A stretch of 55,310 bases of DNA, the filler included, from Jimgerdemannia flammicorona (Eukaryota): assembly GCA_003990765.1 (NCBI GenBank). It is 3 parts of 3 records of this genome, joined end to end, with 100 filler letters (N's around TTAATTAATTAA, not from the genome) between each part and the next. Parts side by side here need not be neighbours in the genome. Positions count along the whole stretch, not along the records: positions 18,478 to 36,844 come from RBNJ01002225.1; 2 more parts are not named here. One strand, given 5' to 3'. A program made the translations under genes and the position numbers. Of the stretch, positions 17,509-47,672 are shown piece by piece. The notes below the pieces were generated by a model. The model did no database searches and had not been told where the DNA came from. It worked only from the letters and a program-made list of their open reading frames with translations. How positions within the stretch are numbered: position 1 is the stretch's first letter; every line of letters begins with the position of its first letter.

Positions 17509-18377
17509 ATACTAAGTATATTATAACCTTTGCTCTACTTTCTCAAATATAAGAGTAAAGTAGTATTCCTATTACAGAATCTTCACATCTAACTTATTAA
17601 TAATTCTGAGTCTAATTAACTTGAGATATAAGTATAATATATTTATCAGTATAAGAACCTAAAAGTAATATCTAGACTCTATTATAACAGATAATTGGAA
17701 CTCAGTACTTTCTCAAGAACTCAGAACTTAAGATTAATAGTTATTATTGACTATCTGTAATATATTAATTCTATTAGTATATAGTTTTAGTATAAGTTTC
17801 TAAATGAAGTTTTATATAAAAAAAGATCTTCAATAATCAATTATATTACTTTCTAAATATTAGAAGAAATCTTATAGTAAATTTACTTTTTTTTTCCTAA
17901 TATGAGAGCTACTGAGTTCCTATTAGTTAATCTTAGATATAGTAGTCAGCTTATGATGAATTATCTTAGTTAATTTTATCTTTATATTCTTATACTACTT
18001 AATATATAAGCTGAGAACTAAGATCCTACATATATCTGATATAGAGATTATTACTCTTAATTTAGATATATATATATATATATATATTTAAATAGAATAT
18101 AACTTATGTAATTTGACTATTGAGAGAGAAATAATATAACTTATATCTATTATCTATATTATATATATAATAAGATACAGAATAAGTAAAATAATATTTA
18201 TAAAAAAGTAAATAAGTATAAATACTATAGATTAGTCTAAAATATATAGTTTAGTTTAATATATATATATATATATAAGAGATTAAATTTAAGTTAGTAT
18301 ATAAACTTATATATAGTCTATAGACTATAATATAGTATACTATATATCTATAAATAGATTTATAGTTTTTTTTTTTT

Positions 18378-18477
18378 NNNNNNNNNNNNNNNNNNNNNNN
18401 NNNNNNNNNNNNNNNNNNNNNTTAATTAATTAANNNNNNNNNNNNNNNNNNNNNNNNNNNNNNNNNNNNNNNNNNNN
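18378..18477. other. Artificial contig linker (N-run, TTAATTAATTAA, N-run)
   Basis: Six-frame-stop spacer inside Ns; identical to 36845-36944. Confidence 0.97.
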
Positions 18478-18537
18478 GGGGGGGGAGGGGGGGGGAGAGA
18501 ATTCAGAAGGCCTTGTGTATGGATTGATGCAACTCAC

Positions 18538-18743
18538 GCGTCAGCTTTGAACATGGCGTCGGAAGCCTTGAAATATGCCTGGATGGCTTGATCATAGGCT
18601 TTTCCGGTCTTGAAGGCAACACCTGCCTTCTCGTAGCATCCACCGGCAATGTCCCAGTCGGGTTTCCTGAACATACCCTTGGAGGCGGCCTTATCTCCGT
18701 CGGCCATCAGCTTGACACCGTCGCGTGTACGTTGGGCCTCCAT
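18538..18743 (-). CDS. NAPG: First coding exon of gamma-soluble NSF attachment protein (gamma-SNAP) homolog; remainder lost at the contig end
   Basis: MEAQRTRDGVKLMADGDKAASKGMFRKPDWDIAGGCYEKAGVAFKTGKAYDQA resembles the gamma-SNAP N-terminus (KPDxDxA...YxKAxVAFK). It is followed by splice donor GTGAGT, in undecayed CpG-rich sequence. Confidence 0.8.
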
Positions 18744-19918
18744 GAACTTGAACTTGGTCGGTATTGATGTTGTAAATGGGGCACACTGTAACAAAACTAG
18801 GCAAACTGAGAATGTGACGTCAACGTCATTCTTGGCGTGTTGCAACAAAGTGAACATGTGATGTCACTCGTGCATTAAGTTCGAAGATTTTATTTTTGCC
18901 GTTACTTTGCTGGTAACAATTATCAAAATAATCATAGTAAGCAAGCCAAAAGTGCTCCCCGTTTTCATACTTCTCTACTTTCTCTTTCTAATCTGGCCAC
19001 TTGTTTGCTTTATATTCCTGAGCAACTTCAGTAAAATTTTTGATACTTGGAGATGGCAAGGTGGGAGAATAATCAGGTAGAATATGAAATTTCTTAGGAA
19101 AGTTTCTTGCACTACAACTAGATAATCATCAATAAAAATATCGAAATCCAGGATATTTTCTTTCATCTTAAATGAGAGAGCGGCCGCGTATATAAGTATA
19201 AAATCGTCATCTTTCCATCCAAGGTAGGTTATGTGATCTATGCCCGATTTGGGAGCCCGTATTTGTCGATTGCGCCACCCCATGTATAAAACAATCGTAT
19301 ATACAAACAAGACCTATCATGATTGACGGGGTGTTCAAATACTTCTGATTCAACCATCAAGCCCCTGAGATATCAATAAAGTCGCACCCGAGCCGGCGCC
19401 CATGCTGTATCCTTGCTCTGGCGAAATCTCGCGCTCTCTCGTGCAACAATTGTGACCAACAAGAATCAACGGGAAGATATGGTCGCAAAACCACTCGAAA
19501 ATATGATGTCGGCACTATGATAGGGATTATCCTTAATCGCTTAGCTTAGCAACTGACAAAAAAAAAAAAAAATCTACCTTATCGAAGAGGTAGACAAAAC
19601 GTCTGATAGAAACGATCGCATCAAAGAGGAGACCTTGCCGCTAGTGCTATCCAACGACTCATGTATTTCATACTTTCAGCAACAACTATACTATTGAATA
19701 TCTTCGTAGATTACTCCAGGACGCCTAATATGCATGCGTGAACCTTCAATGATAAATAAATTCAACTCTACAGCATCTGAGAACATTATACAATTGTTCC
19801 AGTCATAACGGAATTTTAAACGAAACAACCAACCTGTCCAGAAGTTATTGAGAAGGGTCATTCCCTTGTAGAATAATTTTTCTCGAGCATCATCAATTAA
19901 TCTAAATACCTAAGAGCC

Positions 19919-22605
19919 TGTTGTGGCATGAGATTTGTAACTCTTGGTACTTCTAGTACAGCTCAATGTGCCACTTATAGAAGATTTCTATCTTGATCTC
20001 ACTTGACTGATAGTAGTTCCTAGACTCAATGCTTGTTTGATTTGTTCTAGTGGCTAAGTCTCTTGATGACTTCCTGGTCTTGAATTTTAAGGTAGTTTTC
20101 TCACTTATAAGAGAAGTTCTTTAACTCAAACTTGAGCTTCCAATTGCTTCAGATAGTTATCTTCTCTGAACTTTCTGATCTCTTAGAAGCAGTTATTACT
20201 CTGAACTCTTGAACTTTGAAAATTAAATTGTTAACTAACTAATTGAGTGAGATTTATTATAATAAATATATATTAAAGTAAAATACTTTAATATAGTAAA
20301 GTAAGATAAAATCTGAGTCTTTAGACTATATATTAGCAAATTTCTATAAAAAAACACTTTTTAGAATATTTTTATATAGGTTCTTATTATTATTTTTCTT
20401 AAGTATTTTAAAAGACTATTTTATCTTATATATATAATTAATATTAAGATCAGATTGATATCTCAACCAAAGTCTTATTCTGAACTTATTCTGAAGTTTA
20501 AAATTTTCAAAATCTCAGAAAGTTTAAGAAATTAAAACTAGCTTTATAATGAATCATTATATACCTATATATAAGTTACTAGAATTTCCAACTAGCAATT
20601 ATAGATACTGAATATAGTATAACTATATATAGATATATCTAGCATACTATATTTAGTTATAGTTTTGAATCTGTATAAATACTCTTTATATTAAGTATAT
20701 TGTAATCTCAGCTCTACTTTTCCCAAATATAATAGAACTCTCAGATCTGACTTGTTAATAATTCTAAGTTTGATTAATTTGAAATATAAGTATGGTATCT
20801 TTTTCAGTATAAGAACCTAAAAGTAATATTCTAGACTACCCATAATTTTAATTATCTATAATATATTAATTTTATTAGTATATAGTTTTATTACAGTTTG
20901 ATAGTAGTAAAAGTTATAAGTAAGCTTTTCTTAAGAAATTCACTATAAATATAGACAATTTAGTTAATATCATCAATATTATCAGTAATAACTAAAGAAT
21001 ATCTTCACCCTAGCTATTCTTTAGAACTAAGCTAAAGAAGTCAATAGAATTATTACTGAGTAGACTAAGTATAACAGTTCTAGTTTCTTTAAGAGGAAGT
21101 GGCTAAATCTGGAAGTTCTAGTTGACCTAAAGTAGCTTAAAGAGATACTTAAAGGTTCAAGTATTCTTAAAGAATTTCTGGAAGAAAATATTCTGAGCTT
21201 TATTTAGGCAGAGAACAAGAATATTTATATATAATCTGAAAAAAAGATCTGAAAGAATCTTAGAAAGAAAGAGAAATACTAAGAAATAGGTTCTTAATAA
21301 AGCTAACTAATATTATTCTATAATATTCCAAAAGGTTTCATAACTAGCTAAGATAAGATACTTAGTATCGAGGAAAGATAAGAATATTCTAGTAGTATCT
21401 GAACACTAAGAGAAGGTTTCTAAGTAAGTAGAAGGTGGTGGAACATAGTAGAATATTCAAGAAATGATAAGAAAAGACTAACTAAAAGATGCAAAAATAT
21501 ACTAAGACTAAATATAGCTGTGAAATTGATATATCCCTCTCTCTTTAAGAACTAATATCCTTATTGAGTTCTTAGATAACACAAGACTAGATATACTTAA
21601 CCAAAATTTCTCAAACTTATATTGGCACATTGGTAGAAATTAACTATCCTTATATAGGATAAAGGATCTATTACTAGACTAACCAACTGGGAAGAGTTCA
21701 AACTCAGCTAGTAGCTTTATTTTAATGGACTTCTTGTTTATTAAATATTCTACTAGTTCTGGGGTCCCAAAGTAAACTTCTGATACATAAGATACTGGTT
21801 ATTACTATAGGTCATCAATAATCCAAGAAAGTCACTACAGAGATTAAACAATGTGTTTTACCTCAAAGTCTTAAATTAGATCTTAAGAGTTCTTGAGATT
21901 GACTAGTAGTCCCCAGATAGTATCATATTCAGAGTAATTCATCTACTTGACTAGGTATTTAGGATGGTAGTAGTGGATTCATTTATCAAGAATTTTCTCA
22001 GCTTTATACTCAATATGGTCTTTAATAATCACAGAGGCAGAAGGCTTAGGAATTTGACCAGAGTAGGGCAGTGACTGGTTCCAGGTCTTGAGGTGTGATA
22101 TATAAAAGACTGGGTATACTCTTATGATTTCAGGTAGCTTAAAATAGTAGGAGGATGTAGAAACTTATTCAGTAATCTTGAAAGATTCAATATACTTGGG
22201 TTGGAACTTGTTTGAAGGATAGTTGACTTGAGATTATATCTTGAGGTTCTCAGTAGACAGTAGAACTTGATCTCCAACAGTATAAGTGATATCACAGTAT
22301 TTCTTGTCAGTATACTTGGTTTGATACTGTTGAGCCTTCTGAAGATTTATAGTAGTAATTTTGAGTAGTTTGTCCATTTTATCTGTAAGGTTCTTGATAG
22401 TAGAGACTTATATTTAACTGCTTTTCTTGAAAGAGAATAGACTTGTAGGGGTCTTGAAATCTTGACTATAGAGTAACTGAAAAGGAGAAAGACTAGTAGA
22501 TGATTAGATGGTATTGTTATATGCAAACTCTACATAAATTAGATAGTGGTCCCAATTATCTTACTCATAAGAAACATAGTTTCTAAGTATTTGTTCTAGA
22601 GTTCT

Positions 22606-22678
<73 letters not shown>

Positions 22679-23949
22679 GGACTCATGTCCTGCAGAATTT
22701 TATTGGAAGGGAACTTAGACTATATAGGCCAAAACCCTCCCTCACCACCCACCAAGCACTGCCCCCCCATTAACCTAGGCTAGCTATTATCCAGCAGCTC
22801 AATCATACTAGGCACAGCAGGGCCTATATTGGCCTATATCTCATTCTGCGAACTATGCTCTCTCTACTACCAGGGGAAACCCAACCATATGCCAACGACC
22901 GAAAGTATATATCTGAGAACCCAATGTATGTACAAGGCCATGCTCGAGCCGAATAGAATAGCTCCTACCACCTTAAAGAGAATGACAGGCAAAGAAAAAC
23001 CCTTATCAAAGTACAACATAGTGGGTAGGGCCTGGTTCTCCCAGTTAAAGTGAGTAAAGGACTTACATGTGAGGCAGGAGGAAGCCCCCAATATCTCACT
23101 ACTCAAGCCTGCAGGCCTTGATCACATTACCATATCAGCTCCTGGTTCCAGTTAAGTGCAGCCAAGATATCTGAAATAGATAGCCTTGGGCCCCCCAACC
23201 CCCCCTGACAACTAGGGCTCAACCTCGCTGACTACCAAAAGAAGCTGAGAGTGACACCTACCACCTAACTACACTGCATCAATCAAAAGGCCCCACCAAA
23301 ACAACACCTGCCCCAGCCCCAATGACTACCCCCAGCCTGGCACCCTACTGGTTCACCATTATTGCCCTTCCTCCTATTTGTGACAGCCATCTCCCCTCCC
23401 ATCCTGACAACACCTGAAAAGCAGTCACCTATGCCAGAACTGCACTCACTGGGAAGCTCACCAAAGCCAGAGGGCCCCACCACAGGTACCGAAGACCTGC
23501 AGGTAACCTATACTGAGCACTTGATGCCCAAGGTCAGTCGACTCCCTATATAGCCCAAGACACACCAAGACAATACTTTGTTGGTGATGGCAAAAGGAAG
23601 AAGGCACCACACCAAAATAAGTATACTCCATACACAGTTGAAGGCACCAGAATCTACAAAAAAGTGAAGGAAGTACTGATTGGACACCAATAAAGGGGCA
23701 ACTCATCACTATTGCCCTCCTCTCACTATGCCCCTGTAGGTACAGCAAATCAACCTAAGGTAGAGGAGGTAATATTAGGGGAAAGGAGACTCAGAAGGTT
23801 GCCTACCAAACCTTGTGACCAGTAAGGTAGTGGAGAAAGGAGCGTCTAGAGTTCTGTTTATACACTTAGTTTGTCCATTAGTTTGTAGATAAAAGATAGT
23901 AGATATAGCCAATTGAATTCTCAGAGTCTTGAAGAGAGTTTATCAGAAG
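19919..23949 (-). mobile_element. Heavily decayed chromoviral Gypsy element (family C): integrase core/GPF region, chromodomain (~21900-22020), probable 3' LTR (~19919-21535)
   Basis: Minus-strand EYKAEKILDK...KYLVK...DTIW chromodomain and integrase remnants (NRTLEQILRNYVSY, EFAYNN). LTR limits are tentative. Confidence 0.7.
22610..23844 (-). mobile_element. ~1.2-kb poly(A)-tailed non-LTR retroelement (SINE-like / non-autonomous), 15-bp TSD TCTAGAGTTCTGTTT
   Basis: Long poly(T) at ~22607-22675, AATAAAA near the 3' end, and TSD at 22595-22609 and 23845-23859. Homologous to 33843-35030. Confidence 0.85.
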
Positions 23950-25561
23950 TAGTACTCCAAATGAGTCAATTTGAATCAAATCCAGATTTGATTTGTCACA
24001 TGATGGTTTGATCCAAATCTCAAATCTGAAGCTATCTGAATCAACTTGGATTAATCTGAATCACCCTATCTGAATCACCTCATCTGAATCACTCATCTGA
24101 ATCACCTTATCTAAACCACTCAATCTGAATCACTCAATCTGAATCACTCAATCTGAATCACTTAATCCAAATCCTCTAATTCAAATCCTCTAATTCAAAT
24201 CCTCCAATTCAAATTCTCCAATTTGAATCCTCATCCAAATCCTTCAACTAAATTCTCCAATTTGAATCCTCTACATGACTCATATACTAGACATGTCCAC
24301 ATATACAATATATATATATATAAATATATACATATATATACAAACATACAAATACACATGTTGACAGATCAGTCTTCAACAGTTCATAGTACTGATGCTT
24401 CAAGTCAATATCTCTGATAGTTCCATACCTTCCATACAATTCTCACTCTGAAATTTGGCAACATTGTGCTAAGATGAGAGATAATGTTATTTGTAATTAT
24501 TATAGATAAAAAATTAAGATGTACCTATTGATATAACTAATACTTTTATTTAATATACATATGATACTGTTTCATCTACCTTCATAAACTACACTAGTCA
24601 GAAGTTCAAAATACTTAGTGGTACAACTTCAAACATGTATATATAAAAGACAAGCACTCTGACAAAATTAAAAAGAATATAGAGACAAATAAAATTGACA
24701 TCCAAGCTGTGGTAGGTATGTTTATCTAATTTTCTAATTATTTCTATACCAATAACCTTGTTTAATCAAAAATATTTAGCCATACTCTTCAGCAGAATTT
24801 CAAAATCAGCTCATTTGCTAGATTGTGTGCATAGACCAGCTATTCATAACCATTAAGAGTGATCAATTGCATAGCATCTTTAGTCTCCTCAAGGATTTAT
24901 ATTTGCTAAGTGCTAATACTATTTGTAAAGATATTCTGAAGGCCTATAGGAAGGAGCACAATAACTGCCAAATACTTCAGGTAAAATAAGTGTAGTACTA
25001 TAACCTTTGCAAGCTGAATTATATATATATTTTTATAAAGAGCTCACCAATTTAACCTCACATTCAATAAGCAGAATTCAGCAGAAAAAAATTTGTTTAC
25101 AATTGACACATAAATATTCCCCAATGTAATTTGTTTCTGAGTATTACTGGTCATTGGATTGACCTCAATTGGTAGCTTAAATCTCTCACTCTTGACATTG
25201 TCAAACTTGCTGGCTCTCATTCTGGAGACAATATTGCAGATGCTTTTATTGGTTGTATCTGGGAGCTTGGGATCACAACCAAGGTAAAAAAGGAGAGCTT
25301 GCCATCAGGTCAGTATTTTGAGAGAGATCTTAAAATAAAACAGATTTTATTAGTTATTTATTTTCACATAAATTTGCCAACTGAATATTTCAAGTACAGA
25401 TTTTAGCCATTATGATAGACAATGTCACAAATAACTCAACATTTTTCCAAGTTTTAGCAGCCAGCCTCAAATAGGAAAATATGACCTTTAGTACAAAAAG
25501 CTATCATATATGATGCCAGGCCTACATACTGAACCTTGCTGTTCAGGACTATCTTACATAT

Positions 25562-28116
25562 TGTGATGTACACAATTGACAATAGAGTACTGGTGACTGC
25601 TAAGGTCAGACGACATAATAGCGTGACAATCAAATAGACAGCCTGACCCATTAGGTGATCATCCCAAAGAAGACAAGATAATCCGAGCCAAAATGAAGAC
25701 CACATTATTTAAGGAACCATACTCCACCTCAGGGATCGGCACCAAAGAACCAAGTACCCACCACACAATGTCTTCTATTCGCCGAACCAACCAGACCTCC
25801 CACCACTCTACCCCTCTGCCTGGCCCAAAGACCCTGATCTTTGAAGCTATCAAGAAGGCCATTTGGCGCCCAGATACTTCCAAACACTTGAACTTCTACA
25901 CCGAGGACCTTGGACACTTCATCAACTACCGGTATATAATGACTCAACAGCTCAAAGATACTACCAAACGAATGACCCTCTGGCATGACTACAAAATCAG
26001 ACACCGCCTTCGCAATGAGACTCAAGAAGATGACCAGGAAGGCCTCATTACCGAATTGATAACCACTAGCCAGCTAATCAAGAGAGCTCTCTGTGTCCAC
26101 CAAATCTTCCACCATACTCTCTGGGCCATAGCACACTTGCAAGGAGTAACGACTGGCAGTCTTTCCTGCCTTTCAACTGAAGATGCTGACTGGATAGAAT
26201 CTGAAGTAGCCAACTCTACTGGCAGCAACCGCATCGCTGTAGGAAGTCAACAAACCGAATCTACTCAACCAGGTTTCCACACTACCTCACTCCGAGACAA
26301 CCATCAAGGTCACCTAATGAGCCTTATGAAGATGTTTGAAGGACCGCTCATTACTATAGAAGCACCCGTTGGAGCTACCCCTACCACCCACCACCCTATC
26401 AGCTACAATTTACATCTCATCATTTGGGAACCGAATCAAGAAGAAGCCCAAGAGGTCCCTGTCTTTAAGGAGGAAGCCCAAGAACTCCAAGACCCTGCCC
26501 CTGAAGAAACCCTCTCTGACACTGAAACTGATGAGCCTTCAGAAGAAGAAGAGGAGCAACAGAGAGTCTACCAGTCCTCTGTCCACATTCAAGCTGTTCA
26601 AGGGTTGGAGAATGTTGTTGAAGATGACTGGCCACTTTTCTACCCCCTCACCTCTTGGCCGGTGCTTCCCCCTTTTGAGGAGAGGTATGATGAAGAAGAA
26701 ATCTTAACCCAGCAAGATTTGCCTGCCATGGATGAAGGGTACTATTTCCTCTAGAAGCACCACCTGTCAGCCATGAGAATTGTGCAGCCTTCATATCAGC
26801 AAGTCCGAATCCAGCATTGCTACTCAGCACAACCATTTCCAGCGTCGCTATCCAGTGCCACCATTTTCAGTATTTTGTCAGCAAGTCCGAATCTAGCATT
26901 ACCACCCACAACATCCATATCCAGCACTAGCACTCATCTTATTCCTATTCGGCGCAAACAATTATCACACCCGTTTTCAGCATTGCTATCCCCTACAACC
27001 TAATCCATAGTAAACAATAACCTGCACCTCACATCGTGCAAGCCAATAGCATAGCGAAGTTCGCTACAACGTAGTATACCTTAGCCACACCCATAGCTAG
27101 CAAACTTGTAAAAATAACCCATATTCTTAGAGTGAATAAAGCCTCAGCCAGTTTGTGTTTAAAGGTAAAAAGGATTACAAAGAAACCACTGCCTCCAAGA
27201 GACCGGATAAATTCTGAGAACAAGATAACTAGAGCAACGATCGCTCAAGGTTTGAGTTAAAGAATTTTCTCTTGCCACAGAAAGAAAACATTACCCAACC
27301 ACCGCCATTCGAGACCCAAGTTACTCAGCCAAGGATTCAAGACCACAGACTGCCCACAATTCAGCCAGTTTGTGTTTAAAAGTAAAAAGAATTACCAAGA
27401 AACCTCACTGCCTCCAAGAGACCAGATAAATTCTGAGAACAAGATAACTAGAGCAACGATCGCTCGAGGTTTGAGTTAAAGAATTTTCTCTTGCCACGGA
27501 AAGAAAGAAAATGTTACCCGACCGCCGCCATTCGAGACCCGAGACTCAGCCAAGGATTCAAGACCAGACCACTATTCAGACTGCACATTCAGACCGCCAT
27601 TTGAGATTCAAGACCCAGAAACCCAAGGATACCCAGCCAAAGGATACTAGACTGCCAAAGACCGATCCACTGCCAAAGACCCGAACGACTGCTAGGAACC
27701 TAACAAGTTAAGATGGACAAGCGAGCTGTCAACCTCCATTTTTCTGACCTACTGTGCCACGAACCACTTAAAGTCAAGACCATCGCCTGCTTTAATTGAC
27801 CACATAAAGAGCAAGCCCATCATCGCCGCATAAATCCAAAGTTTGCCACCAAGTTAATTGCTGCCAGGAAACTTAGCCAGCATAATCACCGCCCTTATCC
27901 ACTAAAATATTGAGCCACCATCATTGAACAACTGAACGACCTCCCCATTGAACAATTGATCTCCTGCTATTATTATTACTGCATGAAACGAACGACCTGT
28001 CATGTGACCATCGACCCATAACCATTGCGAATGCACTCAGTTTTCCATCGCGTGCTTCACCAGTGGCACACATTGAGCCGTGCAGTCGAAGTTCATTATA
28101 CATAACCAATACCACA
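25562..28116 (+). mobile_element. Solo LTR (2555 bp) with 4-bp TSD ATAT, containing an intact ORF and a ~215-bp tandem duplication (~27145-27560)
   Basis: TGTGATG...ACCACA termini with ATAT on both sides. The TATA/poly(A) region (27092-27150) is homologous to the TRIM LTR (15274-15330). No PBS, PPT or gag/pol. Confidence 0.85.
25693..26754 (+). CDS. LTR(U3)-encoded protein of unknown function, 353 aa; helical-looking N-terminal domain and acidic C-terminus
   Basis: Uninterrupted ORF, homologous by eye to ORFs 11131 and 41609 in other LTRs. Confidence 0.8.
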   Translation: MKTTLFKEPYSTSGIGTKEPSTHHTMSSIRRTNQTSHHSTPLPGPKTLIFEAIKKAIWRPDTSKHLNFYTEDLGHFINYRYIMTQQLKDTTKRMTLWHDYKIRHRLRNETQEDDQEGLITELITTSQLIKRALCVHQIFHHTLWAIAHLQGVTTGSLSCLSTEDADWIESEVANSTGSNRIAVGSQQTESTQPGFHTTSLRDNHQGHLMSLMKMFEGPLITIEAPVGATPTTHHPISYNLHLIIWEPNQEEAQEVPVFKEEAQELQDPAPEETLSDTETDEPSEEEEEQQRVYQSSVHIQAVQGLENVVEDDWPLFYPLTSWPVLPPFEERYDEEEILTQQDLPAMDEGYYFL

Positions 28117-29549
28117 ATATGTATATAAAATATCCAAGAGAGGAGGGGCTCTGAGAATAATTTCTGAGCTATACAAACTAGTTATATTGGTCTGATTATT
28201 CCCACAATGATAAGACAAATTCACTATACAGTATAGGACAATCAGTTTAGCCCTGAAAGAGCTTATATTGGATATTTGTATACATTGAAACTCAACATTT
28301 GCAATGATCTAGCAAATGCTGGAGTTTGCTGTAATATGCATCCTTTTTTCTTTGGTCAGTTGAAGCAACTTATTTCAGATGATTGAAGATTTTTTTTTTT
28401 AAAAAAAAAAAAAAACAAAAAAAGCCAATAGATTCAATAGTGGCTACTGATAAGAAAATATAGGGCAAGGTTCTAGGTAAAAGTGAGTGAGACATACTTA
28501 GGAATATTGTCCAGAGTTTTGAAAGTAGTAATTACTCTGGCTCCATACTTGTTTTGTCTATCTCTGCACAATACAATATCTCACCACATATAACTACCAG
28601 TATTTCAACAATTGTATGAAGAATATAGTCAAATAAATGACTCCAACAATAAGCTCTACAATACCAGTATATAATCTTCTGATTAACTGGCTAGAGGATA
28701 AGCTCAAGGATAGGCTGAAGGGTTGTAGTGATTTATAGTTAAGCCCAGATCAGTGAGATGTCATAGAGGTTGATCTAAGCAAACTTAGAAAATACTACTC
28801 CAAAACAGATACTGCCATATACTCAATCAGTATAAATATGTTAGCATGTAGCTATTACCTCTTCCAAAATAGAGAAATCTCTACAAAAACTCACTCTCTT
28901 TTCTCTGAACAGTACTGGACCCATACTTAAAGCTACAATACTATAAAGATCAGGACTGGGAGTAGTACTTCATTGAGAGAACTAAGTAGGCTATAATTGA
29001 AGTATACTGGAAAAACTATATACTACTATAAGATTCCAGCCAAAGTCTGGATGAATATGCTGAGAGATCCCTCCTGTTCTACATTTACTTCAGCAGAAAG
29101 AGGAAGAGAGAGCTATCAGTGAAAGAGCTGTCATCAATAGACAAACTTACCATTTATCTCACCAGTGACCATGTGATCCTGCTGGAGAATGTGGAGGTGC
29201 TCAACTGGTGGAAGATGAGTTGTCAGACAGATATTGAGCCAATTTAACCTATCAATCTAACTACTACCCTATCCATCAGAGTGTATAGCTGCATCAAACA
29301 AACTTCCCCAGCCTATATAGTATAGCTTGGAACTATCTAGCAATTCCTGCCTCCAGTGCTCCCATCAAGTAAGTGTTCTCAGGTAGGGTAGACCTTGTTA
29401 TCCCAAAGAGATGTGCACTGAATGCTGAGATAATCTAGGTGTATATGTATCTGAAGTCTTGGTGGGGCTCAGGCCACTAAAATTCAGTGGATCCTGGGAG
29501 TTTACAGATAAGTTAGTTGGCCTTGTGGAATATTTAATACCTTTCAAAA

Positions 29550-32520
29550 ATAAAAGGAAAAAAAACCTGAGGACTTAGCCTGAAGTTTGTGACCCAAGTA
29601 GAGCAGTAGTCAGTGGGGTTGGTGACAGTAGAGAGAGTATGCAAAATTTGTAACCCTTTATTAGCAGTAAAGAGCAGCCCCAAGCTGTTAGTACCTGGAT
29701 CAGTGGGCAGGTCGGTGGGTGTGGGGTCAGCAGAGAGAGTGTATAAAATTTGCAGCCCTCTGCCAGTAGTAAGCGATAGCTCTAAGCTACAAGTATCCAG
29801 ATTGGGGGGATTAGTGGAGGAGGGGGTAGATAGAGGGAGTGTACAAAATTTGTGGCCCTCTGCTAGCAGCAAGGGGCAGCCCCATGCTGTCAGTACTCAG
29901 ATCAGTGGGCAGGGTTAGTTAGTGGAGTCAGTGGGCACAGGGTCAGTGGAGGGAGTATGAAAAATTTGCAGTCCTCTACTAGTAGTAAGGGGTAGCCCCA
30001 AACTGCAAATATCTGAGACAGATAGGGCAGACAGAGGGAGTATGCAAAATTTGTGACACTAGCAGCTTGGGGCTCCTTCCAGCAGCCTGTGTCTAGGCTA
30101 GGGGTTGGCAGGATTGGCAGAGGGAGTATACAAAATTTGTAGCTCTCTGCCAGCAGTATAGGGGCAGCCCCAAGCCACTAAGGAGTCTGAGTCTGGGCAG
30201 AGAGTACTTCTGATAGTTGGAGGGTACTTCTGGCAGTTGGAGAGTGCTTCTGACAGTCAGAGGGTATTTTCAGCAGTTAAAGAGTGCTTCTGACAGTCAA
30301 AGTCCACTACAGATTCAGGCCCTATCACTAGTTCAGATCTCATGGACACCCTGGCCCTGCACTGTAGTGCCACACTAGTAGAACTACAGAGCAGGGCCAA
30401 GGGACCAGTAGGGCCCAGCATAATGGCTAAACTAGTGCTACAGAAGAGGTACCTGGCTGCTAGCCCAACTTGTACAAAATGACTGCTAAACTCTCATGAA
30501 AGATTGTCTAACCCTTATAAAAAATTGTCTAACCCTTATGAAAGATTGCCTAACTCTCATGAAAGATTGCCTAACTCTCACAAAAACTACTCTACCTACC
30601 GATCCCAGGCCTTGATGAGTCTGTTATCTATTGTAAGTATGATGATTATTGTGTCTAAGCTCTCCTCAAAGACAATAGTACTATAGTGATTGTGTGGTTA
30701 GAATAGGACAGCTGTATTGGCTGCAAACAGAACCCCAAAACTATAGATGAGAGCATACCAGACTCTGCTACTATCCTCTCTGGTTGGGTCCTTCCTTTCT
30801 AGGATGTAGAATATTACTGAGGTAATGTTGTTATCTATATGTATGGACAGAGAAACATTGCACCTGACATATCCTGATATAATATAAGTATATGATTGGG
30901 TGAACTCTTAGTCCAAGACCTTGTACTGCCAGGCTGTGCTGGTGGATGCCTGCCCTTGGTCTAGCCCCAGAAGCCCTGACTTGGAAACCTGTCAGACAGA
31001 TGGCATCTAGTTAGTCCTTTTGTATGCAAGGGGGGCAGAAGCCCCCTAGGCTACAGAAAACCCCCAGGCTGCAGCACTCAAAAAAAGTGGAGCTCCTCAC
31101 CTTATATGGCATACTAAATTGCACCAAGAATATATATACAGCTGTGCTGAGATCACCACTAAGCTGGTCTGCCATATGCTCTACTAATCTGCTCAAAGAA
31201 CCCCAGATTATAGTCACCATCACTGTACAGGCTGTATCATGCTCATATGCAGTTTGCTCTTTGATGGCACTTCTAAAGTTCCAGTAGGGGTACAGAATCT
31301 TATGCATTTCTGGAATTGTATCAAAAAGAGTATGTCAGTGAAGAGTATGATTATTTGGGAAGGAGTAAAAAAAAGAGAGATGAGTACAGAAGATTTCAGA
31401 TCTCTAGAACCCACCTTTTGCCAGTATTGCAGTATACTCAATTTCTGTCCAAACCACCCCTCCTTGCTTTTTTCACCCCCTCTTTTCTGCTATCTAGTAT
31501 TTGATACAATCTTTACAAATCTTATTAATATGGCAGTGAAGCTCATTGCCATAGAGATTTCTTACCACTATTACAACCACCTCTCCACATTTGTTAATAA
31601 TGATATGATTCTCTTTATCATTGATTACTCCTGCTGGCCAATAGATCTCTTGGTTGAGAACAATTAGCTCTGATTCAAATGTAGACCCCCAAGCCTTGAT
31701 GATGATACTGGTACTGCTCATGCTGAACATCTTACTCTTGAATTTCTCTATTTGATCAGATACCAGATGTAATTGAACTTGGATAACTTTGAACTCTCCT
31801 TTTCAATGGAACTGAGCTCTGATCTGAGTGGCCAAGATAAGTATATAGACAGGTTGCATGTAGATGGGTTGTATGCAGATAGGTTGCATGTGGGCAGATT
31901 GTATATAAATGGGTTGCATATAGGTGTAGGTGTTTTTTAGAGAGAGACCATGTAAAAAATGAAGTTAAATAAAATATAGAGATGGGTATTTCAGAAAAAG
32001 AGTATAAGTGAGTGAGTGAGTGAGTTGTATGCTGACAAGTTGTACAAGTTGCATGAGTTATACAAGATTGCTTATAAAGGCTTACTTTTGTTCCTTTTGA
32101 GACCTCTGCCATATGATATATTGACTCAACAGCTCAGCCACCAAAGGCATGCCCTGTAATATCCACCAGCCTTTCTTCATCTTGATCAGATGTTGTGAAT
32201 AAAGTCAGCAGATCTCACTATAGAGCTATGGACCCTAAGAAAAGCATGAGGTAAATTGGGTCATATTAGAGAAATTTAAATAAATATAAGTAAATAAGTG
32301 GCAGCAGAGTGAGCAATCTACATCTACTATTTACTGCTCCAAAAAGGCTACCATATATATAGCTATGAGGTCTGTAAATTCTGAGATCTGAAGGGCCACT
32401 ATGAGTTGTTGCCAGAATTCTCTCTCATCTCTGCCATTGTCACTGCCATCACCATTGCCACTATCATCACCACTGCCATTACTCCTTAGGCTTTTGATGA
32501 GTAGCTTGTATGCTGTCTAT
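29550..32520 (-). pseudogene. Putative TET/JBP-like 2OG-Fe(II) dioxygenase gene carried in the hAT element (core exon 30988-30600; repeat-rich C-terminal region)
   Basis: The exon after branch ACTAAC and acceptor CTGACAG translates ...NVSLSIHIDNNITSVIFYILERK...WYALIYSFGVLFAANTAVLF*PHNHYST...IILTIDNRLIKAW. It has HxD and a distal HGT-like motif (TAT AGT ACT can derive from CAT GGT ACT by transitions). Outer limits are approximate. Confidence 0.6.
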
Positions 32521-32997
32521 ATGAGAAAGAATCTAATATTATTAGTAGAGAGTGTATTTCTATCTTGAATACTCTCTCTTTTGATGATTATTGCAGGGTA
32601 AAAAATGAGTAGACTAGATCAACATATAATTAAGGACTACTGTTTTATTTACTCATGATGTAGTAGGAAAGAAAAAAGAATAAAGAAAAAAAACAAAAAA
32701 AGAAAGAGACAAAAGAAAGAGTGATATCACCAAAGTGTAGTAGGAAAAAAAAACAAGAGTGAAAATGAACAAAAGAAAGGATAATATTATCAAAGATTTC
32801 AATCTGGATAGATTAATCCAGATAAATCAATCCAAATAGATCAATCAGATGGACCAATCTGGATAGATCAATCTGGATCAATCTGGATGGATCAATCTGG
32901 ATCAGATTACAAGACCAATCCAAGTTGATTTGAATCCATCACATGACAAATCTGAATCAAATCTCATCTGAATCAACTCCATCCATTTGGAGCACTA

Positions 32998-35555
32998 GCA
33001 ATATGATTGAGATCTATAGGCTTGAGTAGTGGGATATTGAAAGTCTTCTCTTATCTTATATATAAGTTCTTTACTCATCTCATTAAAAAGAACTAGGTCC
33101 TATCCACCATTCTATATTTTGAGGAGGATTTTTCTTTACCTATTGCTCTCCTTGGGACAGTGAGGACTATAAATTGACTTATATATAGCCTTATATATAT
33201 GTTGAGAATTCAGATATATACCTTTAGTATATATTTATTACTCTCTGATAGTAAGAAAAGCATAGTGTGCAGAATGAGGTATAAGCAACTTTGTCCTACT
33301 ATACTTGATATAGTTGAGCTACTGGACAATAGTTAGTCTGGGTTTAATGAGGGTATAGTACTCAGTAAGTGATGGGGGAGAGTTTTGACCTATATATTCT
33401 AGGTTCTCTTCCAATAAAATCTATGGAACTTTGGATCTATTAAATATATATATAAGACTATACTAAAGCTAGCTAGCAAAGTCTCTACTATTCCAAATAA
33501 AACAACAGATAAAGAAAATCTCTCCAAAGATATAGAATAGTGAATAGAATCTAGTTCTCTCTGATAAAGTAAGTGAAGAACTTATATGTAGAGCAGGAGA
33601 TATCCCACTACTCAAGTTTGCAGGTCTTAATTATATCACTATATCAGCTCTTAGTTCTTGTTGAGTATAGTCTAAACATCTAATCTGAGTAGTCTTGGGT
33701 TCTTTAATAACTCTAAATAACTAGAGTCCAATCTTATATATATATTATCAAAAGCTACAGAGAGTGATATCTATTATCTAACTACTCTATATTAATTAAA
33801 AGACACTATTAATATAGTGCTCACATCAATTTTGATAATTATGGCCCCTTTCTCCACTACCTTACCAGTTACAATGGTTTGGTAGGCAATCTTCCAAGTC
33901 CACTTTCTACAATTATTACTCTCTTTACCTTGGGTTGGTTTGCTGTACCTAGTACAGGGCAGTGGGAGGGAGGCAATAGTGATGAGTTGCCCCTTTATTG
34001 GTGTCCAATCAGTGTCTTCTCCACTTTTTCACAGTTTCTGGTACCTTCAGCTACATCTGGAGTATATCTATTTTGGTGCAGTGCCTTCTTTCTTTTGTCA
34101 TCACCAACAAGAAACTGTCTTGGTATATCTTAGGCTACATAGGGAGTTTGCTGACCTTGGGCATCAAGTGCTCAGTATAAGTTATCTATAGGTCCTCAGT
34201 GTCTGTGATAGAGCCCTCTAGCTTTGGCGAGCTTCTCAGCAAGCATGGTTCTGGTATAGGTGACTGCTTTTCAGATGTTGTCAGGATGGGAGAGAAGATG
34301 GCTGTCACAGATAGGAGGAAGGGTAATAATGGTGAACCAGTAGAGTGCCAGGCTGGGGACAGTCATCAGGACTAGAGCAGGTGCTACTTCAGTGGAGCCT
34401 TTTGATTGATGTGGTATGGTTAGGTGGTAGGTATCACTCTTGGCTTCTTTTGATAATTTGGTGGATTGGGCCCTAGTTGTCAGAAAGGGTCAGAGGGGCC
34501 CAAGGCTACCCATTTTAGGTATCTTGGCTACACTTAACTAGAACCAGGAGCTGATATAGCAATGTGATTGAGGCCTATAGGCTTGAGTAGTAGGGTATTG
34601 GGGGTCTCCTCCTACCTCATGTGTAAGTCCTTTACTCATCTTGACTGGAAGAACCAGGCCCTACCCACTATTGTGCTTTGATGAGGGTTTTTCTTTGTCT
34701 GTTATTCTCTTTGGGGTGGCAGAGGCTATTCTATTTGGCTCGGACATAGTCTTGTACATATATTGGGTTCTTGGGCATGCACTTTCGGTCATTAGTATAT
34801 GGCTGGGTTTTCTCTGGTAGTAGAGAGAGTATGATATACAGAATGAGGTGTGGGCTACCATAGGTTCTGCTGTATCTGGTATGGTTGAGTTACTAGACAA
34901 TAGCTAGCCTAGGTTAATGGGAGGACAGTGCTTGGTGGGTGGTAGAGGAGGGTTTTGGCCTATATAGTCTAGGTTCCCTTTCAATAAAAATCTGTAGGAC
35001 ATTGAGTCCATTAAAAAAAAAAAAAAAAAAATCAATTTTGATGATTATTACTAGTCTAGCATCTGACTGATTTACTATAATCACTCTTTCACCTATCTAT
35101 AATAGCTATCTTCTCTCTCATTCCAATACTACTTTAAAAGTAGTTATCTATACTAGAACTATAATTACTAAAAAGCTTACCAAAACTTAAAGAGCCTACT
35201 ATAGATACTAAGAACCTACTGAAACCTTCACTGACACTTGATGTCCAAGGTTAGTTAACTCTTTACATAGTCTAAGATATATATATTAAGATAATATCTT
35301 ATTGATAATAATAAAAAGAAGAAAGTATTATATCAAATAAATATATCTCAAATATTATTAGAAGTATTGAAAAAGTAGAGAAAGTATTAATTTGATATCA
35401 ATAAAAAAATAACTCATTACTATTATCTCCCTTCTACTGCCCTATAACTGGTACAGACCAACCTAAGATAGAGAGAGTGAAAGTTAGGAAAAGAGAACTC
35501 AGAAGGTTGTTTATCAAAATCTTATAACTAGTATGATAGCAGAGAAAGAAGAGCC
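32998..35555. mobile_element. Cluster of three copies of the ~1.2-kb poly(A) retroelement; complete copy at 33843-35030 (+) with 18-bp TSD nested in an older minus-strand copy
   Basis: TSD ATCAATTTTGATAATTAT (33825-33842) / ATCAATTTTGATGATTAT (35031-35048) and poly(A) at 35013-35030. The flanks are decayed homologs of the same element. Confidence 0.82.
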
Positions 35556-36844: not shown

Positions 36845-36944
36845 NNNNNNNNNNNNNNNNNNNNNNNNNNNNNNNNNNNNNNNNNNNNTTAATTAATTAA
36901 NNNNNNNNNNNNNNNNNNNNNNNNNNNNNNNNNNNNNNNNNNNN
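36845..36944. other. Artificial contig linker (N-run, TTAATTAATTAA, N-run)
   Basis: Same spacer as 18378-18477. Confidence 0.97.
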
Positions 36945-39900
36945 AACAACCTGACCACCAGAACACTAGACTTTGTCAAGTTAAGACAAACTGCTAAGGC
37001 CCCAACCAAAGGAAGTCAAAAAGCAGCTGGATATGACCTGTATGCAGCCGAAGAAGCTACAGTTTCTAACCAAGAAGTCAAACAAGTCTATACAGGAATC
37101 AGTATCCAAATCCCTAAAGGACATATTGGAAGAATATGCTGTTGCAGCAGCCTAGCACTGAAAGGACTCTCAGTAGAAGGAGGAGTCATTGACGAAGATT
37201 ATACAGGCGAAATCATTGTCCTATCCGAAACCACAGTTGGACACTCTTCAAGATCCCTATTGGCTTCTGCATTGCCCAGATCTTGTTTGAAAAAATCGAG
37301 TCAACCCTGACAGTCAAGGAAGTCCCTGAACTACTACCTACCATCCGAGGATCCAAAGGATTTGGCTCATCAAACAAGGCCCCAGCCCAACCTACTGTAA
37401 GCAAAGAAAAACAATTCTACAAGAAGATAGAAGATGGATATGTACCAAGTGGCTGATGCCCTCATGGTATTGGAATGTACTCTTCCCGAATGATTGATGA
37501 TTGCTTCTCTTGTGTCAACGAATTGGCTCAAAGAAGAACCAACAGAAGAAAGGCTCCTACAACCAAAATCACCACAATTGGATCAGACAAACTGCTCACC
37601 CTTAAAGCTTTTGTCAATGGAGCACCTGTCAAGATTATGATAGACAGTGGTGCCTCAGGCAACTTCATCAATGAAGAGATAGCAAACAGACTCAAGGTCT
37701 TCACCTCCCCAGTACAGCAAACTCAAGCAGTTGCTACAGCTGATGGAACCTCGCATGTTATTAGCAAAGAAGTCCGCAATCTACCCTTCCGAATTGGCGA
37801 CTACCGAGTATATGTTACCCTCCAAATCGTACCACTTCCTGACAATGAAATCATCCTTGGGACTCCATGGTTAAAATAAGAGAACTCCATGATTGATTGG
37901 GTAAACTATTCCCTGACTATCAAGAAAGGATGCCACAACTTCAAACTACAAGGCGAAAAGGACCCACTCAACTCTAGGGACCCTGGACCAAAGATCACTC
38001 ATATCAATAAGCTACAACTCAAGAAATTGGCCAAGAAATGCCCTCTCTTCGCCATCTCCATCCGACCATCCAAAGGAGAACCTGAGAACTCTGAAGAAGA
38101 TTTTTCTAAAGTTGACAGCCATGTCAGACCACTACTCCAGAAATTCCGAGACATATTCCCAAAGAAGCTCCCGAAAGGCCTACCTCCCAAATGAGCAGTA
38201 GATCATGCCATCAAGACTATCCCAGATACCAAACCAGCCTTCAAGTCAATCTACCACATGTCTCCAAGAGAAATTGATGCACTCAAGAAGGAAATCGACG
38301 AACTCCTAGAACAAGGATTCATCAGACCCAGCATATCACCCTATGGTGCACCAGTCCTCTTTGTTGTCAAGAAAGGAGGAGACCTGTGAATGTGTATTGA
38401 CTACCGCGATCTCAATGAACAGACTATCAAGAACTGTTGCCCACTACTGAGGATCAATGAAATATTCGATAGACTTACCAACCCACAATTCATGAGCTCT
38501 TTTGACCTGTAAAATGGTTACTGGCAAATTGCCATGAAAGAAGAAGACATCTACAAGACAGCTTTCTGAACTCGCTATGGACACTTCGAGTTCCTGGTTA
38601 TGCCCTTTGGCTTAACTAATGCTCCAGCAACCTTTCAGACACTGATGAATACCATTCTGCATCCATACCTGGACAAATTCATTGTTGTCTACATTGACGA
38701 CATCCTAGTCTTCAGCAAAATGCTGGAGGAACATCTTGAACACCTTGAACTAGTACTACTGAAACTCCGAGAAAACAGACTCTTTGCAAAACTCAGCAAG
38801 TGCAAATTGCTCCTGAAAGAAATTCAATTCCTTGGACATATTATCACTCCAAATGGAATCAAAGTGGACCTCAGCAAAATCTCTGCAATCAAAGATTGGC
38901 CCAGACCAAGGAAGCTGAAAGACCTCCAGTCATTCCTGGGATTAGCAAACTATTACAGGCATTTCGTTGCCAACTTTGCTAAAATTGCTACTGTCCTCAC
39001 CCAAATGACCAAGTACAGCAAGAAACAAGAACAACCCTGGACCATGAAACAAGAGAAGGACTTCAACAATCTTATAAATTGGGGACCCAAACAAGATACC
39101 ACCTTTCAAGCACTGAAAGATGCCCTGATAACCACTCCAGTACTTCAAGCAGCAAACCCTGCCCTACCATATGAAGTCACCACTGATGCCTCTGATCTAG
39201 CTCTTGGAGCAGTGCTCATGCAAGAAGGACACCCTGTGGCCTATCACTCCCGCAAGTTCAATGATACCGAAATCAACTACACAACTCACAAAAAGGAAAT
39301 GCTAGCCATCGTAGACACTCTGATTAAATGGTGACCATATCTAGAAGGAGCACACTTCACTGTATTGACCGACCACAAGTCATTAGTCAACATCAAGACA
39401 CAGGCCACCCTTTCTCAAAAGCAAGCTAGATGGATGAAAGTCCTCACCAACTTTGACTACGAAATTCAGTACCACCCTGGCAAGGAAAATATTATTGCCA
39501 ATGCAATCTCCAGACCACCAATTGAAGAGGTTATCCAAACCCTGACTCTGGTTACTAATACTATCATGGAACAAATCATTGCAGCATGTGTTGATGATAA
39601 AGAAGCTCAAGCACTCCGAGAAATCCTGAACAATGATGATGCTGACAAGCATACCTGGTACAATCAATACCAACTCAAGGATAATGCTATCTACTACAAG
39701 GACAGATTGTATGTCCCAAACAACCGAGATCTCCGAAGGACTATCCTATTCGAATGTCATGATGCCCCTACAGCTGGACATTTAGGATTTGATAAATGTT
39801 ACGAAGTTATCTCCTGAAACTTCTATTGGCCCCATATGGCAGATCAGCTCAAAACCTACATCACTTCCTGTGATGCCTGCCAAAGAAACAAGTCCTCAAT

Positions 39901-43497: not shown

Positions 43498-43943
43498 CAA
43501 ACACAAACAAAACAAATCCAAATCGAGATTAAAAAACATCCGCAGACCCCAGAGGGGTGAGTACGAGTGAGAGGTGAGACCTTACTCTGCTCCCCTCCGC
43601 TGCCTTCGGCCCCTCGCTTCACTTGGGCTCACTGCAGCTTGCTCCATTTCAGCCTCACCCCTCGCTCGTGCTCACCCCTCTGGGGTCTGCGGATGTTTTT
43701 TAATCTCGATTTAGATTTGTTTTGTTTGTGTTTGTTTGTGATTTTTATCCTGCAACTGGGATTGGCTCCCCCTTTATCTCCACCTATCTCCGGTGGTCAT
43801 GTGGTTCCTAATTCGGTTTGCCCTGAGTTGTGGCATGTCCTCCCTTTTGGGATGTCATATTTTATATATAAGGACCGCGTTTTTACATGGCAATAAATAG
43901 CTGATGCATTTTCAGTTACATTCTTTGTTCGTCCCCCTTATAC

Positions 43944-45170
43944 ATGCCTTTCCACATGTCTTCTGTTCGCTTTGACACTGGCTCTGGGTTCACTCCCTTG
44001 GCTCCCACTGGGCCTTCTTCCTCCTCTGCTGTACCACCTGCCATTGGGGCCTCCGTCCTCATCAATGAGCTCATGGATGAGGAACTTCCTCCTCCCCCTC
44101 CCCCTGCCTTCACTCCTGCTACTGTCTCCTTTGAGACCTACGTCTCTTCTGCCATCCTTTCCCTCCCCTTAGACCTTTGTCCTTCTGGTTGTCCGCTCCT
44201 CTCTCAGTTTCGGTCAGTTCTTGCCCTCTCTGCCAAGGAGGCTCATCTCTGCCATGATGTCGACATCATCGCTCTGCCCACCATCTGCTACTCTGTTCTC
44301 CCTGAGGCCCGCCACCAAGCCCTCTCCGAAGAGGTTTGCGCTACCACTGCCGCCGCCAAGCTTGCCACTGCTGATGCTGCCGCTGCTTCTGCTGCCACTG
44401 CTTCCGCCTCCTTCCAACGTGCCTGTGCCACTTTCGTGGCCTTCGCCTCCTCCCGCCTTTCGGATACTGCCCCCTTCTGTGGCTTTGCCATCCAAGACAT
44501 TCCTTCTGTCACTGCCAATATCGACGCTGTGCATCATTTCCTCCTCACCGGCACCTCTTTTGTTGCTCGCCTTCATGAGCAGGAGTCATCACGTGCTACC
44601 ACTGCTGCTCATGCCGCCGCCCCTGCTCCCCTGCCTACCTCCCCTGAGGTTTCAGTCTCCAAGACCATCTACGCCAAAGCTCGTGCCGCTACTTGTGCTG
44701 AGGTTCGTTCCTTCACCACTGCTGCTGCCAAGGCCCTCTCCAAGACCCCCGCCAAGACCCCTGCCAAGCCCAACCAGACTTCATCGGCCTCTTCCCGGTC
44801 TCCCTCCCCCACCAAGGCTTCCTCCTCTATTCCCCCTACCCCCAAGCATGGCCACCAACTTGGTTCTTGCCCTGTCGGGGCTTGGCCTTACGCTGTCTGC
44901 TCTGGTCACCTCCACCATGCCTACTGGCACCCAGCCAAGTCCATCTGTCCTCATGGTGGTGTTCCTCGCGCTGCTGCCCCTTTGACTGCTTGCTCGCCTT
45001 TGGCCTCTACCAGTTCTTCCTCCGCCTCCTCCACCTGTGCCCCTGAATGTAAGGGCTGCACGAAAGCCTGTGGCCACAAGGTCTGGCACTCTGACAGAGT
45101 GTGCTCCCATTCATTGGGCTCGCTACCTTCAAAAAAAGTCAGAGGGAAGGGGAAGGCCTCCCGCTCTTAA
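43944..45170 (+). CDS. PLE ORF1 (Ala/Ser/Pro-rich, two C/H-rich WH motifs, basic C-terminus)
   Basis: 408-aa open frame starting inside the pLTR, upstream of the RT in the same frame. Confidence 0.7.
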   Translation: MPFHMSSVRFDTGSGFTPLAPTGPSSSSAVPPAIGASVLINELMDEELPPPPPPAFTPATVSFETYVSSAILSLPLDLCPSGCPLLSQFRSVLALSAKEAHLCHDVDIIALPTICYSVLPEARHQALSEEVCATTAAAKLATADAAAASAATASASFQRACATFVAFASSRLSDTAPFCGFAIQDIPSVTANIDAVHHFLLTGTSFVARLHEQESSRATTAAHAAAPAPLPTSPEVSVSKTIYAKARAATCAEVRSFTTAAAKALSKTPAKTPAKPNQTSSASSRSPSPTKASSSIPPTPKHGHQLGSCPVGAWPYAVCSGHLHHAYWHPAKSICPHGGVPRAAAPLTACSPLASTSSSSASSTCAPECKGCTKACGHKVWHSDRVCSHSLGSLPSKKVRGKGKASRS

Positions 45171-47063: not shown

Positions 47064-47672
47064 CGCCCTCTGATTGCTCGTTCGCATCTTTCTTCCATTT
47101 CTTCTTCAATCCATCACTCTCATTTTGCATTTTCGTCACCTTCTGGTGCCTCCGGTTCTGCCAGAGAGGATTAAAAAACATCCTTGCCCCCTCCGGGGTC
47201 TCGTGCTCACTCCGGGGTCTCGGCCTTACTCTGCTCCCCTCTGCTGCCTTTGGCCCCTCACTTCACTCGGGCTCACTGTGGCTCGCTCCATTTCGGCCTC
47301 ACCCCTCGCTCATGCTCACCCCTCTGAGGTCTGCAGATGTTTTTTAATCTCGATTTGGATTTGTTTTGTTTGTGTTTGTTTGTGATTTTTATCCTGCAAC
47401 TGGGATTGGCTCCCCCTTTATCTCCGCCTATCTCTGGCAGTCATGTGGTTCCTAATTCGGTTTGCCCCAAGTTGTGGCACATCCTCCCTTTTGAGATGTC
47501 ATATTTTGTATATAAGGACCACGTTTTTACATGGCAATAAATGGCTGATGCATTTTCAGTTATGTTCTTTGTTCATCCCCCTTATACACACCTTTCCACA
47601 TATCTTCTGTTCGCTTTGACACTGGCTCTGGGTTTGCTCCCTTGGCTCCTGCTGGGCCTTCTTCCTCCTCTG

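Follow-up and report, generated by a model that had tools for sequence, protein, structure and literature searches.

Positions 23950-32997 of a 55,310-nucleotide stretch of DNA from Jimgerdemannia flammicorona (GenBank assembly GCA_003990765.1), the whole of which is referred to here as the window, probably represent one dead copy of a hAT transposon carrying, as cargo, a complete four-exon gene for a Tet-like 2-oxoglutarate (2OG)/Fe(II) dioxygenase; we place the probability of this reading at about 0.68. The element measures 9,048 bp between paired terminal inverted repeats (TIRs), and the dioxygenase gene lies between the 3' end of the transposase gene and the right TIR, in the orientation opposite to the transposase. 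The gene is complete, introns included, and not a captured fragment, because it resolves into four exons whose intron positions match those of a metagenomic relative, and point transitions alone have killed it.

The gene runs on the minus strand from 32150 to 30575, with canonical splice sites. Exon 1 (32150-32086) opens with an ATG at 32150-32148, is followed by a GTAAGC donor after 32086, and encodes MPLVAELLSQYIIWQRSQKEQ, a product beginning with MP whose W-Q-x-x-Q/R-K stretch resembles, by eye, the start of the relative P0005 and the first exon of the metagenomic locus L001. Exon 2 (31818-31415), placed by tblastn to P0005 and P0006, is bordered by a CAG acceptor and an AAAG/GTGGGT donor (the slash marking the exon end) and contains in-frame stops at 31805-31803, 31496-31494, and 31475-31473, with an alternative acceptor possible at 31823. 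Exon 3 (31309-31101), between a CAG acceptor and an AAG/GTGAGG donor, is open and free of stops. Exon 4 extends from 30988 to about 30575 and holds five further stops, at 30910-30908, 30700-30698, 30598-30596, 30589-30587, and 30580-30578. The spliced model amounts to 1,092 nt, or 364 codons, with eight in-frame stops and zero frameshifts. In tblastn, residues 92-227 of P0005 matched 31637-31101 (E 5e-9) and residues 238-345 matched 30973-30656 (E 1e-7), and the 364-codon model aligned with the same protein over 246 positions with a score of 262, where 200 shuffles averaged 32 (sd 4.4).

The motifs lie in exon 4, the only exon that had been proposed in a first-pass annotation of this DNA. Its predicted start at 30988 proved exact, with a CAG acceptor directly before it, and all the motifs then claimed are present in one minus-strand frame: N-x5-HID (HID at 30841-30833), TSVIFYI, NTAVLF-stop-P, HYST (30688-30677), and IILT..RLIKAW. 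The decayed glycine segment reads SSR (30772-30764) where relatives have SGG, that is, SSRVWY against SGGIWY, and the YS at 30685-30680 replaces the HG of relatives. The proposed reversion of Tyr-Ser to His-Gly, which would turn HYST into HHGT, is borne out, since the pair is His-Gly in all five relatives. The residue preceding it is L, P or V in these proteins, and not H.

Relatives were sought with phmmer, using the 140-codon read-through of exon 4 as query against 1.84 billion representative proteins, and five proteins matched at E ≤ 0.001. The closest, P0001 (136 aa), reached E 4.4e-43 at 60% identity, followed by P0002 (134 aa, E 9e-17), P0004 (128 aa, E 2.3e-4), and P0005 (374 aa, E 3.5e-4); P0003 (3,022 aa, E 3.4e-13) was dropped as a tandem-repeat protein matched through a repeat artefact. 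A search with P0005 added P0006 (259 aa), the sole protein which it found, while searches for protein homologues returned none with the upstream exons and just two known members with the family alignment. All five retained relatives are metagenome proteins according to cluster look-up. Residues 4-133 of P0001 aligned by tblastn with exon 4 without gaps over 130 codons, 78 of them identical (60%; E 1.8e-47), and the protein reads PTHTDNN, SSGGIWY, NTAVLFQPHDLHGT, and DDRLIKAW, being intact at the positions that have decayed in the window.

The His-x-Asp...His (HxD...H) iron triad that had been attributed to the gene is kept by its family, in the pattern HxD...GG...HG(T/S), where HxD occurs as HTD, HVD or HID. 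All five relatives have the first His and the distal His-Gly pair, and the triad Asp is found in four of them; P0004 has Asn, and the near-identical gene of L001 has Asp. The window copy retains HID, with the distal His changed to Tyr. An Arg located 20-21 residues after the distal His, which may be equivalent to the 2OG-binding Arg of TET enzymes, occurs in the window (RLIKAW) and in all relatives except P0004.

At the DNA level, a metagenome scan with the family alignment yielded two loci, L001 and L002, which form one distant subgroup and are 99% identical over 2.7 kb; no relative was found in the scans of genome contigs and viral contigs. No public sequencing run, RNA or other, was listed as containing 29550-32520. 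Both loci have 34% GC and a CpG observed/expected ratio of 1.2, and therefore come from a different kind of genome than the window. L001, from a genome that is not depleted in CpG, carries all four exons of an intact gene. The last three are open and arranged in the same order as in the window gene, and the two introns between them interrupt the protein at corresponding positions; P0005 is a continuous, intron-free product of 374 aa. Downstream of the L001 dioxygenase gene, two open frames of 93 and 94 codons in the same orientation (2320-2945, plus strand) have no Pfam match.

The lesions of the window gene are largely of one kind, as the first-pass annotation had anticipated in describing a spliced, transition-decayed gene convergent with the transposase. 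Of the 52 residue differences between exon 4 and P0001, 38 fit C>T/G>A changes alone, compared with seven for the reverse direction and zero to three for each transversion class. Changes compatible with C>T/G>A account for four stops (Gln or Trp to stop), for the conversion of the distal iron-ligand His to Tyr, and for the replacement of Gly-Gly by Ser-Arg. The segment 29550-32520 holds three CpG in 2,971 bases, an observed/expected ratio of 0.02, and the ratio for the whole window is 0.25, with an excess of TpG and CpA and with all NCG contexts depleted. Among 5-kb bins, 15001-20000 reaches 0.59, the other ten bins lying at 0.00-0.07 (six) or 0.25-0.48 (four); the high value may mark DNA that is younger or unmethylated.

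The right TIR (32936-32997, minus strand, TAGTGCTCCAAATGG...), whose terminus TAGTGCTC at 32990-32997 had already been recognised, pairs with a left TIR at 23950-24011 (plus strand, starting TAGTACTCCAAATG...). The left end was missed by an exact search of the window allowing up to three mismatches. It emerged from a search in purine/pyrimidine (R/Y) coding, which tolerates transitions and gave one strong match to the right end across the window, with 27 of 30 positions agreeing in R/Y code and 22 of 30 exactly. Compared with the reverse-complemented right end, the left end agrees at 12 of the first 13 nucleotides, and the alignment of the two TIRs over 62 columns comprises 40 identities, 14 transition mismatches, three other mismatches, and five gaps. 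The terminal consensus of hAT elements starts with YARNG; here the ends begin TAGTA... and TAGTG... and pair over about 60 bp, in keeping with the short TIRs of this superfamily. Because the left TIR at 23950 pairs with the right TIR at 32997, the dioxygenase gene lies inside the hAT element, and the earlier suggestion that gene and transposase share one TIR-bounded element is borne out.

Short repeats lie just inside both ends. On the left, ATCTGAATCAC-like units read directly from the sequence (24040-24270, plus strand) are putative transposase-binding repeats, and on the right, Tandem Repeats Finder detected about eight copies of a 14-bp unit at 32799-32907. Tandem repeats also fill 29600-30585, as found by self-BLAST and Tandem Repeats Finder, with units of about 100 bp at 29609-30178, of 20/40 bp at 30199-30299, and of 21 bp at 30489-30585; these minisatellites occupy the gap between the convergent genes, the 21-bp repeat beginning just past the last dioxygenase codons. 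Outward of 32996-33000 a different repeat family takes over, with matches at 34557-34641 and 23051-23128. The element is flanked by two copies, inverted and 82% alike, of a repeat some 1.2 kb long (22657-23843 and 33844-35031), which also has partial copies at 33000-33444 and 35039-35548; the right end of the hAT element adjoins an internal point of one of the partial copies.

The assignment to hAT rests on the 3' part of the transposase gene (28700-29480, plus strand). A Pfam scan of six frames of 26700-33100, with stops written as X, recovered the C-terminal dimerisation domain Dimer_Tnp_hAT (PF05699) at E 6.4e-6 and 26.3 bits (cut-off 21.4), at residues 865-921 of the frame starting from 26700; beyond chance-level rows, nothing else matched in these frames, in the exon or in neighbouring ORFs. 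Because this domain lies at approximately 29292-29462, the transposase ends near 29480, in agreement with the end first proposed and with the hAT identity of the element. The 5' and central parts of the gene are probably represented, in decayed form, by 24400-25590 (plus strand), where motifs were recognised by eye: ITGHWIDLNW..SHSGDNIADAF at about 25150-25290 and CQAYILNLAVQD at about 25520-25560, both of which may correspond to hAT transposase blocks. The region of these motifs, about 25150-25560, the candidate for the DDE/RNase-H-like catalytic core of the transposase, had no Pfam match at E ≤ 1, and a PDB sequence search with 25113-25289, the first motif in frame, returned nothing at E ≤ 10. 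Between the two parts, a probable nested insertion spans 25600-28430, with approximate boundaries. Its open reading frame (ORF) at 25627-26754 (375 codons) has no Pfam match and resembles 11146-11664, a stretch that follows a Gypsy pol (30% identity, E 9e-12); the insertion also includes a tandem duplication of 219 bp (27161-27566) and a run of T/A (28390-28425). Judged from these similarities, the transposase gene seems to have been split by an inserted retroelement fragment.

The nature of the encoded enzyme was approached through the ESM Atlas, which includes a model identical in sequence to P0001 (predicted template modelling score 0.59; predicted local distance difference test, pLDDT, 0.69). 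Among the ten structure neighbours listed for it, at template modelling (TM) scores of 0.54-0.63, eight represent 2OG-Fe(II) oxygenase clusters and two have no family, so that the predicted double-stranded beta-helix of this oxygenase fold is recovered by one model of a 136-aa fragment. The families involved are Tet_JBP (28% of one cluster), 2OG-FeII_Oxy_3, 2OG-FeII_Oxy_5, prolyl 4-hydroxylase, and hypoxia-inducible factor (HIF) prolyl hydroxylase. In the Atlas comparison by language-model features, the third-ranked neighbour of P0001 (score 0.91, 178 shared features) is a cluster named 'Tet-like 2OG-Fe(II) oxygenase' with PF20515 on 72% of its members, while for P0005 the first-ranked cluster (score 0.96, 209 shared features) has PF20515 on 15% and the eleventh has Tet_JBP on 16%. 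PF20515 and Tet_JBP are the sole named families among the feature neighbours listed for these two proteins, and the Atlas neighbours of both are mostly from Basidiomycota. At the level of sequence, residues 71-102 of P0001 (SGGIWYDLTYGFRVPFAANTAVLFQPHDLHGT) share 17 of 32 positions, without gaps and counted by eye, with the PE-type TET domain of the transposon EnSpm-22_AB (Kojima, 2025; Biology 14:1741, PMC12730594). An upstream S-A-G segment recurs in the PE-type sequences, and the corresponding PU-type segments appear much less alike by eye.

A number of results weigh against reading the element as a hAT copy with a Tet-like cargo. The window copy lacks the 8-bp target site duplication (TSD) expected of hAT elements, as the first-pass annotation had already remarked: the flanks, ATCAGAAG and GCAATATG, differ, and the copy has therefore probably been rearranged. 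It is moreover the single copy of the element in the data, self-BLAST revealing no second one within the window. The description of the gene as Tet/JBP-like, supported by the Atlas neighbours of P0001, finds no echo in profile searches. At E ≤ 10, neither Tet_JBP (PF12851) nor the Tet-like PF20515 nor any other 2OG-Fe(II) profile of Pfam matched the window frames, and no Pfam family at all matched any of the five relatives; the four ORFs of L001 gave no Pfam match at E ≤ 0.01. Against PDB sequences, the exon had NDUFB11 as its sole match at E ≤ 10, at the chance level of E 0.98, and the family profile had none. AlphaFold2 models of P0005 and P0001 were unusable, with mean pLDDT of 37.7 (6 rows) and 40.4 (5 rows), respectively, and the fold assignment rests on the Atlas model of the 136-aa fragment because these models were too poor. 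Structure alone does not single out Tet, because several 2OG oxygenase families occur at similar TM. The likeness to the PE type was judged by eye, and the stated hallmark of that type, HxE in place of HxD (Kojima, 2025), is absent from the family, which has HxD. Lastly, L001 and L002 are the only relatives with flanking DNA, and no hAT domain was matched by Pfam around the L001 gene, in three minus-strand frames and the four plus-strand ORFs.

These points bear unequally on the other explanations that can be offered. There is next to no prospect that non-coding DNA decayed by transitions merely happens to read as these motifs: the stops in the frame and its lack of a Pfam match would suit such a coincidence, but the E-values obtained with P0001 and P0002, the four exons with canonical splice sites and a total length divisible by three, and the intron positions held in common with L001 oppose it, and the homologues found by phmmer and tblastn, together with the alignment of the spliced model, refute it. 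It is unlikely, though less so, that the gene is real and is not the cargo of this hAT, having arrived within another inserted element, for example a Helitron, or having been a host gene trapped by recombination between two different hAT copies. Helitrons are without terminal inverted repeats. Flanks that form no TSD would suit a copy that is chimeric or has been rearranged, one nested insertion is already present in the element, and a single copy is available; against this, no inverted-repeat pair convincingly bounding the gene, nor any other element boundary, was found around it in 29480-32990, and by self-BLAST the only repetition of any part of 29550-32520 within the window is that of its internal tandem repeats. 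The gene also occupies the place usual for cargo, with the transposase on one side and the subterminal repeat block on the other, and TET/JBP cargo in hAT elements is documented (Kojima, 2025).

Decidedly improbable, in our assessment, is that the gene encodes an oxygenase of another 2OG-Fe(II) class, prolyl-hydroxylase-like or otherwise acting on proteins or small molecules and not on DNA. Such a class would agree with the prolyl 4-hydroxylase, HIF prolyl hydroxylase, 2OG-FeII_Oxy_3, and 2OG-FeII_Oxy_5 neighbours, whose TM equals that of the Tet_JBP-bearing cluster, with the silence of the Tet_JBP and PF20515 profiles, and with the incomplete conservation, among the five relatives, of a 2OG-binding Arg at a set distance downstream of the distal His. 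It is countered by the feature neighbours listed, which for two members of the family name PF20515 and Tet_JBP and no other family, and by the resemblance to the PE type in both the core and the S-A-G segment, PE-type structures being reported to match CMD1, NgTET, and CcTET (Kojima, 2025). In the full-text literature, furthermore, TET/JBP was the only 2OG oxygenase found documented as cargo of fungal DNA transposons. A Tet-like dioxygenase carried by a hAT element remains the favoured reading.

The pairing of a hAT element with a TET gene, which the first-pass annotation had put forward as unreported, is not new, because TET/JBP genes have been described in eleven lineages of fungal DNA transposons, among them twenty TET/JBP-encoding hAT7 families from six Puccinia species, with dioxygenases of the PU type and 7-bp TSDs (Kojima, 2025). 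No further paper on hAT with TET was found in the full-text literature. The Puccinia elements and the window element are alike in being hAT transposons with a TET/JBP-type gene beside the transposase, in a transposon-rich fungal or fungal-like genome subject to C>T hypermutation, and the same role, countering methylation-based silencing, is proposed for both. They differ in the dioxygenase, of the PU type in hAT7 and resembling the PE type in the window; in the 5' end, CAACGGTGG in hAT7-1_PGr and TAGTGCTCC in the window element; and in the layout, since the TET gene precedes the transposase in the same orientation in the three hAT7 families whose gene order is given by Kojima (2025), whereas the window gene is downstream and convergent. 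The 7-bp TSDs that define hAT7 also have no counterpart in the window copy, and TAGTGCTC matches none of the family termini compared with it, all of them 5' ends from Table S1 of that paper.

With the PE type, known from transposons of Pezizomycetes and Agaricales (Kojima, 2025), the window family appears by eye to have in common the core GG..Y...YG.RV..AANT....QP.D.HGT, to which the 17 identities between P0001 and EnSpm-22_AB belong, as well as the S-A-G segment. Both are too distant from classical TET/JBP for ordinary profiles, the PE type having a reported HHpred E of 1.4 to CMD1 (Kojima, 2025) and the window family no Pfam match; the window family departs from that type in its HxD (HTD, HVD, HID) in place of HxE. 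With PF20515 (2OG-FeII_Oxy_6) and PF12851, neither of which matches the family or the window, it shares the HxD...H triad and the GG turn. Kyakuja-Dileera-Zisupton and Plavaka transposons reportedly also carry TET/JBP genes, as Iyer and colleagues are said to have described in 2014. There too the TET/JBP gene is transposon-borne, in Basidiomycota, but the transposase belongs to another superfamily and the dioxygenases are of the AG or PU type and recognised by Pfam. As far as the content of Kojima (2025) considered here extends, the novelty lies in the hAT lineage, different from the one described, and in the PE-like dioxygenase, which has HxD.

The intact enzyme, to go by its conserved residues, would have bound Fe(II) through the His-Asp-His triad. 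By analogy with what has been proposed for TET/JBP genes on other fungal DNA transposons, namely that they allow evasion of silencing by methylation as well as of C>T hypermutation (Kojima, 2025), it may have oxidised 5-methylcytosine on the DNA of the element itself and on nearby DNA. Such oxidation would erase or recode the methylation that keeps transposons silent and promotes the deamination of CpG. The gene may have been captured by the hAT lineage rather than by one copy. In the window copy the defence would have been lost, CpG being nearly gone and the gene bearing its eight stops, the Tyr in place of the distal His, and Ser-Arg in place of Gly-Gly.

Gypsy elements predominate in the window, some of them with a dUTPase domain. 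Gypsy-type polyproteins at 7781-8776 (plus strand) and 4098-4862 (minus strand) have a dUTPase (E 2.6e-25 and 9.8e-26, respectively) ahead of the reverse transcriptase, and dUTPase-like stretches were noticed by eye at 36897-37310 and 47983-48336. Long open frames at 498-2468 (minus strand), 43905-45170 (plus strand), and 45448-47073 (plus strand) lie in GC-rich segments (up to 60%), are strongly biased in composition and less depleted in CpG than other parts of the window, and none of the three has a Pfam match at E ≤ 0.01. Four runs of 44 N occur as two pairs, at 18378-18477 and 36845-36944, and were interpreted as assembly gaps or masked stretches.

Transposon-borne enzymes of the demethylase type are understood as a counter-defence against the methylation-based silencing of the host. 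That principle is already in print, and in this respect the finding is confirmatory and modest; the window copy adds to the published list a hAT lineage and a PE-like dioxygenase lineage invisible to Pfam. For annotation, the five relatives and the L001 gene could seed a profile where Pfam fails. A further proposal, which we regard as tentative and open to considerable doubt, is that the family constitutes a fourth transposon-borne Tet-like lineage, with a PE-like core and the classical HxD, unseen by Pfam and intact in uncultured eukaryotes, which was acquired independently by a hAT outside hAT7. If true, it would add an enzyme type, a transposon lineage and a host group to the arms race between transposons and methylation. 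In the copy described here that race was lost, the iron ligand of the enzyme having been destroyed by the very C>T change which it supposedly prevents.

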